NCBI GenBank assembly: GCA_003141235.1
Contig: PLLL01000092.1
Location: forward strand, 1,891 to 65,890
Length of the DNA stretch: 64,000 bases
Source of the DNA: Dehalococcoidia bacterium
GTDB taxonomy: Bacteria; Chloroflexota; Dehalococcoidia; Dehalococcoidales; RBG-16-60-22
Reading direction: 5' to 3'
In this document: positions 13,731-15,177 of the stretch, piece by piece
Numbering within the stretch: position 1 is the stretch's first letter
Layout of the letters: every line of letters starts with the position of its first letter
Position numbers and translations under genes: made by a program
The notes under the pieces: model-generated
The model's input: the letters and a program-made list of their open reading frames with translations, nothing else
What the model was told of the DNA's origin: nothing
The model's database searches: none

Positions 13731-14066
13731 ATGACAGCTAAAGTTATCCTGATACAATCCGAGGGGCTGGGCAGGGGCGACGACGCGCTGGGCGGGATGC
13801 TCATGGCCAATTTCCTGCGCGTACTCGGAGGGAACCCGGACAAGCCGCAGACCATCGTGTTCTGGAACGGCGGCGTGCGCTTATTATGCGAAGGCTCCGA
13901 GGTGCTGGAACACATCAAAAAACTGGAGGGGCAGGGAGTCGAGATACTGGGCTGCACCACCTGCCTGGAATATTTCGACCTGGCGGACAAGCTGAAAGCG
14001 GGCAAGCCGACCACGATGGTTAAGTCGGTGCAGGCGATGATGGATGCGGACATGGTCTGCCTGTGA
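13731..14066 (+). CDS. DsrE/YedF-like selenium/sulfur-relay domain protein
   Basis: 111 aa (KVILIQSEGLGRGDDALGGMLMANFL...IVFWNGGVRL...GCTTCLEYF) resembling the DsrE-like C-terminal half of YedF-type selenium metabolism proteins. It lies immediately upstream of selD. Confidence 0.6.
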   Translation: MTAKVILIQSEGLGRGDDALGGMLMANFLRVLGGNPDKPQTIVFWNGGVRLLCEGSEVLEHIKKLEGQGVEILGCTTCLEYFDLADKLKAGKPTTMVKSVQAMMDADMVCL

Positions 14067-14127
14067 AATTTGCCGCCTTTATTTTACGGTGTTACTCAAC
14101 GAGTAGTAGAATATAGCCGGGAGAAAA

Positions 14128-15177
14128 ATGAGCAAAGAAAAGAAATTGCGCCTTACCGAGACAGTTCACGGCGCGGGTTGAGCTTGCAAGATAGGTCCGG
14201 GTGACCTCTCCAAAGCGCTGGCCGGCCTGAAATTCCAGTCCGACCCGCATATCATCGCGGGCATGGAACGGGCCGAGGATGCCGGCATCTATAAGCTCAA
14301 CGCTGACCTGGCCATCGTCCAGACGGTGGACTTCTTTACGCCGATAGTCGACGACCCGTTCGACTTCGGGCGCATCGCTGCGGCCAACGCGCTGAGCGAT
14401 GTCTACGCTATGGGCGGCAAACCCCTGACGGCGCTCAATGTCGTCTGCTTCCCTAAAGACACCATGGATTTCAGCATATTGAGAGAGGTCCTCAAGGGCG
14501 GCCTGGACATGATGCATGAGGCGGGGGTGATTCTGCTCGGCGGGCATACCGTAGACGACCCGGAGCTCAAGTACGGACTCGCGGTTACCGGCACCATCCA
14601 CCCGGATAAAGTGGTGCATAACCACGGCGCCAAACCGGGCGACCGCCTTATTTTAACCAAGCCGCTGGGCACGGGCATCATCAGCACGGCCATCAAGCGC
14701 GGCGCGGCCAGTCCAGAAGCTATCGCCGCCATTGTTAAATCTATGACGACGCTTAATAAAGCGGCTTCCGAGGCAATGCTGGCGGTGGGCGTGAACGCCT
14801 GCAAGGACATTACCGGCTTCGGCCTGCTCGGCCATACTGCCGAAATGGTTGAAGGGACGGATGTCGGCTTTATCATCGAGGCGGCAGCCGTGCCCATTTT
14901 CCCCGCGGCTAAAGCGCTGGCGGAAGCGGGCATGGTCCCCGGCGGCACACAGCGCAACCGGGATTACCGCCAGGACATGGTTGATATAGACAAAAAAGTG
15001 CCGCAATACCTGCAGGACATTCTTTTTGACCCGCAGACCTCCGGCGGCCTGCTGATAGCCGTACCGGCGAAGAAAGCGCAAAAACTCCTTAAAAGGCTGC
15101 ATGAAGAAGGCATTACTGCGGCGGCTATCATCGGGGAGGTGGTGGCGGAGAAAAAGGGGAGGATAAGGGTGGGGTAG
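14128..15177 (+). CDS. selD: selenide, water dikinase SelD, selenocysteine-containing (in-frame TGA at 14179-14181)
   Basis: ATG 14128 is in frame with the track ORF at 14263. The translation MSKEKKLRLTETVHGAG-U-ACKIGPGDL... aligns with E. coli SelD SHGAGCGCKISP, placing the TGA at the catalytic Cys/Sec position. The remainder (FFTPIVDDPFDFGRIAAANALSDVYAMGGKP) is canonical SelD. Confidence 0.9.
14182..14216 (+). promoter_or_regulatory. candidate bacterial SECIS hairpin
   Basis: It begins immediately 3' of the UGA. The lower stem is GCUU(14182-85)/AAGC(14213-16), the upper stem AGGUC(14193-97)/GACCU(14203-07), and the apical loop CGGGU. Confidence 0.6.

Follow-up and report, generated by a model that had tools for sequence, protein, structure and literature searches.

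The DNA analysed here is a stretch of 64,000 nucleotides (nt) of contig PLLL01000092.1 from a Dehalococcoidia bacterium (Chloroflexota; Dehalococcoidales; assembly GCA_003141235.1), referred to below as the window. It carries a gene for selenide, water dikinase (SelD) preceded by a short yedF-like gene, and we conclude with high confidence from the sequence that these genes form a two-gene selenium-activation unit in which residue 18 of SelD would be selenocysteine (Sec), specified by an in-frame UGA codon (14179-14181, + strand) and the Sec insertion sequence (SECIS) that follows it.

In a mechanical list of open reading frames (ORFs), selD begins at ATG 14263 and is given as a 304-codon ORF (14263-15177), with an antisense ORF over its 5' end. 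The frame, however, opens already at 14110, and ATG 14128, which follows a GGGAG ribosome-binding site (14119-14123), is the only in-frame start codon 5' of the TGA. Translation from this ATG yields MSKEKKLRLTETVHGAG, then the TGA as codon 18, then ACKIGPGDL, and remains open to TAG 15175-15177, so that the full-length gene (14128-15177, + strand; 349 codons plus stop) is interrupted by this single triplet. Once codon 18 is filled in, the protein scores 403.6 bits on TIGR00476, the SelD equivalog model (cut-off 125), and 372.5 bits on NF002098 (cut-off 299), and it possesses the AIR-synthase-related N- and C-terminal domains (PF00586, AIRS, 93.6 bits; PF02769, AIRS_C, 92.3 bits). As positions 1-310 of the 311 of the TIGR00476 profile are then covered, a full-length SelD is obtained only with read-through of the UGA. 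The best match among solved structures is E. coli SelD (3U0O; 277 bits, residues 4-347), and in this alignment codon 18 falls on the catalytic Cys17 of HGAGCGCKISP and Lys21 on Lys20; in the alignment to the Aquifex entry (2YYE/2ZOD), codon 18 falls on the Cys of SSGCAAKVGPGDL. An earlier note on this DNA, made from the sequence alone, had described the start at 14263 and the antisense ORF, had proposed that reading from ATG 14128 through the TGA restores the conserved N-terminus, and had placed the TGA at the catalytic Cys/Sec position. The ORF list, the translation, the family model and the structure alignment bear this out, and the region 14128-15177 encodes a full-length SelD with Sec as its predicted residue 18.

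The position of the TGA is highly conserved. Relatives were collected by scanning one genome per species, which gave 80 SelD loci (55-84% identical) from Dehalococcoidia as well as from Desulfobacterota and related groups. The homologous codon is TGA in 78 of them, i.e. in 78 of the 79 that can be read (one is cut by a contig end), and TGC in only one, locus L038. This sole Cys-type relative has KIDQASL in place of KIGPGDL and lacks the stem sequence of the hairpin described below. Thus, the in-frame UGA is aligned with Cys in both E. coli and L038, and the protein is conserved on both sides of it. In particular, the relatives keep the 17 residues that precede the TGA at the protein level (LRLTE[ST]V.G[AS]G; LRLTETVHGAG in the window), and therefore these codons are translated. 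A reassignment of TGA could be rejected, since TGA serves as an ordinary stop elsewhere: it terminates yedF itself, 3 of the 37 long ORFs of the window and 20% of the long ORFs of the closest relatives. As for stop codon usage in general, it is strongly biased towards TAA for DNA of ~50% GC (TAA 22, TAG 12, TGA 3 in the window; TAA 61%, TGA 20%, TAG 20% in the closest clade, loci L001-L016), and TGA makes up 40% in the Desulfobacterota loci.

A two-tier hairpin, which the earlier note had seen right after the UGA, is indeed present at 14182-14216 (+ strand). The segment 14179-14216 folds as ...((((....((.(((((.....))))).))..)))) with -9.3 kcal/mol; the lower helix is formed by 14182-85/14213-16 and the upper one by 14193-97/14203-07, with middle pairs at 14190-91/14209-10 and an apical loop CGGGU at 14198-14202. 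The published bacterial SECIS (bSECIS) model (bSECISearch, in PMC13188914) uses four criteria (loop, stem, spacing and energy), with thresholds of 4-16 bp for the upper stem, 16-37 nt for the distance between UGA and loop, and ≤ -7.5 kcal/mol for the energy. The hairpin lies within all four, having the 5-nt loop of the model with G at loop position 2 followed by another G, an upper stem of 5 bp and an energy as given above, but its spacing of 16 nt is the minimum of the allowed range. A simplified version applied here was passed by 84 of the 2010 UGA triplets in the window (4.2%), so this test is only mildly selective. Furthermore, RNAalifold recovered the same two helices over 32 Dehalococcoidia sequences, in which 90% of the pair cells of the consensus helices are paired; shifting the partners by 1-3 columns lowers this to 24-48%.

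The real evidence for the hairpin is the constraint on codon choice in its stem rather than its folding energy. Codon choice was compared in 36 Dehalococcoidia-like genes, with the rest of the same genes as background. The stem codon of Gly23 is GGT in 35 of the 36 genes (background 16%) and that of Asp26 is GAC in all 36 (background 50%), while Pro24, whose codon contributes to both stem and loop, is encoded by CCG in 35 of 36 (background 36%). The third base of the Gly25 codon, located in the loop, takes all four values and is unconstrained. Among 132 conserved degenerate columns of 76 Sec-SelD genes, Asp26 is the most codon-invariant one (entropy 0; median 1.63 bits), and synonymous-codon resampling over these 76 genes gave a mean z of -0.99 for the hairpin segment versus -0.14 for control segments.

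Several results weigh against a Sec codon with its SECIS at this site. The energy of the hairpin is no better than that of dinucleotide shuffles (z = -0.44; 0.23; 0.39), so its stability alone is no evidence for a SECIS, and we rejected it as such. The stem is coding and almost without variation, so that true covariation is nearly absent, and the shuffle control was not significant. Resampling of the window gene alone gave a z of only -0.8. The Rfam scan of the window at gathering thresholds returned a fluoride riboswitch only and no family at the hairpin, and a permissive scan of 13100-14400 produced nothing but chance-level matches, none of them at the hairpin. As to the decoding machinery, ARAGORN detected no tRNA gene in the 64-kb window and hence no tRNA-Sec there, tblastn with SelA and SelB of a sister clade found no match in the window or the 16 closest loci, and tRNA-Sec, selA and selB are all missing from the flanks (up to 10 kb) of the 16 closest relatives. 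An EF-Tu-type G1 motif does not occur in any frame of the window, and selA and selB are not among its large ORFs, which encode DnaK, aldehyde ferredoxin oxidoreductases, a radical SAM protein, an MFS transporter and others.

The machinery can be found in a second Dehalococcoidales clade (loci L019, L021, L023-L028, L031, L035, L039, L044, L047, L051, L055 and L075), whose SelD is ~60% identical. There, a UGA-containing selD is located beside selA, selB and tRNA-Sec: selA (TIGR00474, 572 bits) and selB (TIGR00475, 368 bits) are present in 15-16 loci, divergent and next to selD, and tRNA-Sec is present in 8, a few kb further upstream. These tRNAs were typed by ARAGORN as tRNA-SeC with the anticodon tca. 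Since the sister clade has tRNA-Sec, selB and selA by its selD, the class possesses the Sec machinery. In the clade of the window, selD is instead accompanied by the short yedF, and the remaining sel genes lie elsewhere. For the organism itself, for which the earlier note had expected selA, selB and selC, the conserved UGA and the SECIS point to such a machinery.

The UGA might also be decoded by SECIS and SelB as Cys, either constitutively with a tRNA-Sec-like tRNA(Cys) or when selenium is scarce. SelB-dependent recoding to Cys was reportedly described by Vargas-Rodriguez et al. in 2018 (RNA Biol 15:471; cited in PMC8762117), and the window gives no clue to the tRNA involved. Nevertheless, the window contains no such tRNA, the sister-clade tRNAs are of the tRNA-SeC (tca) type and lie beside selA, which makes Sec, and a lineage that needs only Cys could use TGC, as L038 does. 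We regard decoding as Cys as very improbable. It is slightly less probable still that the functional product is the 304-amino-acid (aa) protein starting at ATG 14263 and that the 135 nt upstream are untranslated or a regulatory remnant. No start codon lies between the TGA and this ATG, which is the one chosen by gene callers, but the entire N-terminal loop would be missing from its product, and with it the Sec/Cys and Lys that correspond to E. coli Cys17 and Lys20, the SelD model would lose its first ~45 positions, and the conservation of codons 1-17 as amino acids extends across distant relatives.

The earlier note had named an assembly error for TGC or TGT among the things that would overturn its reading. 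The exact YedF protein of the window was found in four other public assemblies (JGI, two samples; ENA; NCBI GCA_003141385.1), and all four agree fully with the window over 151 bases that comprise the selD start codon, the TGA and the hairpin. Although standard ORF calling splits selD and public annotations give only a 304-aa product, there is next to no chance that the TGA arose through faulty assembly or sequencing or by a recent nonsense mutation, with selD being a pseudogene or truly containing TGC/TGT, because these assemblies come from different samples, the 78 relatives with TGA belong to many lineages, and both the peptide before and the hairpin after the TGA are conserved; we therefore consider such an explanation excluded.

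By analogy with established Sec decoding in bacteria, SelD with Sec at residue 18 would be made and would act as follows. During translation, the hairpin 14182-14216 would present its G-rich apical loop CGGGU, starting 16 nt after the UGA, to SelB; SelB carrying Sec-tRNA(Sec) would bind this loop and deliver Sec at the UGA instead of allowing termination. The completed SelD is expected to convert selenide and ATP to selenophosphate using Sec18 and Lys21 of its flexible N-terminal loop, and selenophosphate would in turn be the selenium donor for SelA. As SelD contains Sec, its synthesis would therefore depend on selenophosphate, its own product, and this would make it dependent on selenium supply in a feed-forward manner. 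The earlier note had called Sec-containing SelD a known autoregulatory arrangement. The protein is indeed known, but autoregulation is a published hypothesis rather than an established mechanism: as far as the reference list of PMC1717018 goes, the idea can be traced only to Guimaraes et al. 1996, a paper whose title is worded as a question.

The gene directly upstream of selD (13731-14066, + strand; stop TGA) encodes a 111-aa protein that consists of a DsrE-like domain only, contains a CxxC motif (CTTC) and ends with MVCL. The earlier note had proposed a YedF/DsrE-like gene before selD, and this was confirmed, with the qualification that only the DsrE-like half is present, without the SirA/TusA-like domain. 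In fact, the protein scores above the curated cut-off of the TIGR03527 YedF model (123.7 bits; cut-off 110), but matches only profile positions 85-191 of 194. In the literature, YedF combines a SirA-like domain (with CPxP) and a DsrE-like domain (with CGxC) and is statistically linked to SelD, and the co-occurrence of both domains is treated as the YedF signature (PMC5322559). In an alignment with two-domain YedFs, the whole SirA/TusA-like domain with its CPxP motif is absent from the window protein, whereas CTTC (residues 75-78) is aligned with their CG[ST]C. A TusA-like domain encoded further upstream could be rejected, as the frame is closed by stop codons. Pfam gave no match for the 111-aa protein; PF02635 is on record for some homologues of near-identical length, and a weak similarity exists to the uncharacterised PDB proteins 2FB6 and 1L1S.

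The 111-residue form is common (almost all of the best 120 matches have exactly this length), and in JGI and NCBI records identical and similar 111-aa proteins already bear the name YedF. Of the 16 closest relatives, 12 have this form directly 5' of selD; a two-domain form of ~198 residues adjoins selD in the relative L013 and in many Desulfobacterota loci. Compared with the two-domain form, the short one has not only lost the N-terminal domain but also gained a penultimate Cys, as the VCL end is present in 12 of 12 short YedFs and in none of 19 long ones. The TGA after VCL is not a second Sec codon: short yedF genes of the relatives stop at the same residue with TAA, TAG or TGA, and the TGA at 14064 is therefore a plain stop. 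The single-domain YedF with its lineage-specific C-terminal Cys is the only mildly unusual feature of the locus.

The spacer between yedF and selD is 61 nt long (14067-14127, + strand) and contains, besides the GGGAG motif, a weak promoter-like match at 14083-14112; a consensus scan revealed no terminator-like site in it. From this arrangement, co-transcription of yedF and selD appears likely. The same kind of scan, on its own, gave a terminator-like hairpin 3' of the selD stop (15231-15250, + strand; 6-bp stem and T-rich tail), and this is a possible end of the transcription unit. The half-YedF with its CxxC motif would probably handle or reduce selenium species on their way to SelD. A more specific proposal, which we consider rather unlikely, is that the short YedF with its penultimate Cys, always encoded directly 5' of a Sec-SelD in this lineage, represents a streamlined selenium relay, in which this Cys would replace the CPxP Cys and perselenide or selenide would be handed to Sec18.

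Comparison with known systems places the window protein within the family of Sec-containing SelD/SPS2 proteins (e.g., Aquifex aeolicus SelD, PDB 2ZOD/2YYE, and entries of BSepDB), from which it differs in nothing of kind. It is the same AIRS-fold enzyme. Sec belongs to the Gly-rich loop near the N-terminus and precedes the conserved Lys by three residues, and the same GPGDL peptide follows, whose codons form the SECIS stem-loop. The loop reads G-U-A-C-K in the window SelD and G-C-A-A-K in the Aquifex structure. The residue two positions after Sec is Cys in the window (U-A-C-K), whereas it is Ser in the second Dehalococcoidales clade and in the Desulfobacterota relatives; furthermore, selD of the window is apart from selA, selB and selC, while selD of the sister clade lies beside them. 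The SECIS of Acetomicrobium SelD, a BSepDB example (GGGUCCGGCGGACCUC), is almost the same as that of the window (GGUCCGGGUGACCU; PMC13326102). E. coli SelD (3U0O) shares the HGAG-x-x-CK loop and all core motifs, but has Cys (TGC) instead of the UGA and ISPKVL instead of IGPGDL, hence the SECIS-forming sequence is absent from this peptide. Among the selenoprotein families of prokaryotes, SelD has been ranked second by how widespread it is, and Dehalococcoidia are known to be rich in selenoproteins, genomes with 46-49 of them being reported (PMC13326102). Sec-SelD, its SECIS and its linkage to YedF have all been described previously, and the feature is ordinary and well known in anaerobic bacteria.

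The surroundings of the two genes can be summarized as follows. Upstream, 630 nt without a convincing ORF (13098-13730) separate yedF from a divergent gene (12174-13097, - strand); Rfam gave no match in this stretch, and its similarity to relatives is only short and weak. The 307-aa product of the divergent gene is built from repetitive segments rich in Gly, Ile and Asn, and NCBIfam, Pfam and PADLOC gave no match for it. Immediately 3' of selD, an AT-rich island (15200-17000; GC 0.30-0.35 versus 0.55-0.58 on either side) encodes a 205-aa protein without family match and a 253-aa protein of the TIGR04255 family, and is followed by a gene for a ParA-like ATPase (17398-18183); PADLOC gave no convincing match on the island. 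The island, within which a JGI contig of 143 kb ends, was probably acquired horizontally. Further downstream, there are two paralogous genes for aldehyde:ferredoxin oxidoreductases (22180-24099, - strand; 25152-27008, + strand), the fluoride riboswitch mentioned above (RF01734, 27110-27192, + strand; 43.3 bits, gathering score 34), located directly 5' of an ORF of the Na+/H+ exchanger family (27215-28453, + strand; PF00999, 133 bits), and a gene for a 1502-aa histidine kinase with many PAS domains (36834-41342, - strand).

The main value of the finding is the correction of public gene calls that drop the catalytic N-terminus of SelD. All four public copies of the locus (L081-L084, window positions 3700-24000) call SelD as a 304-aa protein without the catalytic loop, and the two JGI records add a spurious 52-aa antisense gene across this region, a call that arose because the true N-terminus was left uncalled. 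An exact look-up of the truncated 304-aa product found nothing on record; the same look-up succeeded with YedF. The antisense ORF of the mechanical list (14092-14625, - strand) lies wholly opposite conserved SelD coding sequence and was rejected as a gene. Frequent misannotation of selenoprotein genes, including selD, has been pointed out before (PMC13326102). The locus is an unannotated case of a well-described kind and opens no new biological question.

The earlier note had also expected other UGA-containing genes. Three scans of the 64-kb window for TGA-split ORFs with redox motifs or a SECIS-like fold gave no credible candidate besides selD, the others being antisense to real genes, in intergenic low-complexity sequence, or ordinary C-termini. 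Nevertheless, the Sec codon of selD marks the organism as a selenocysteine user, so UGA probably splits further genes in the rest of its genome as well.

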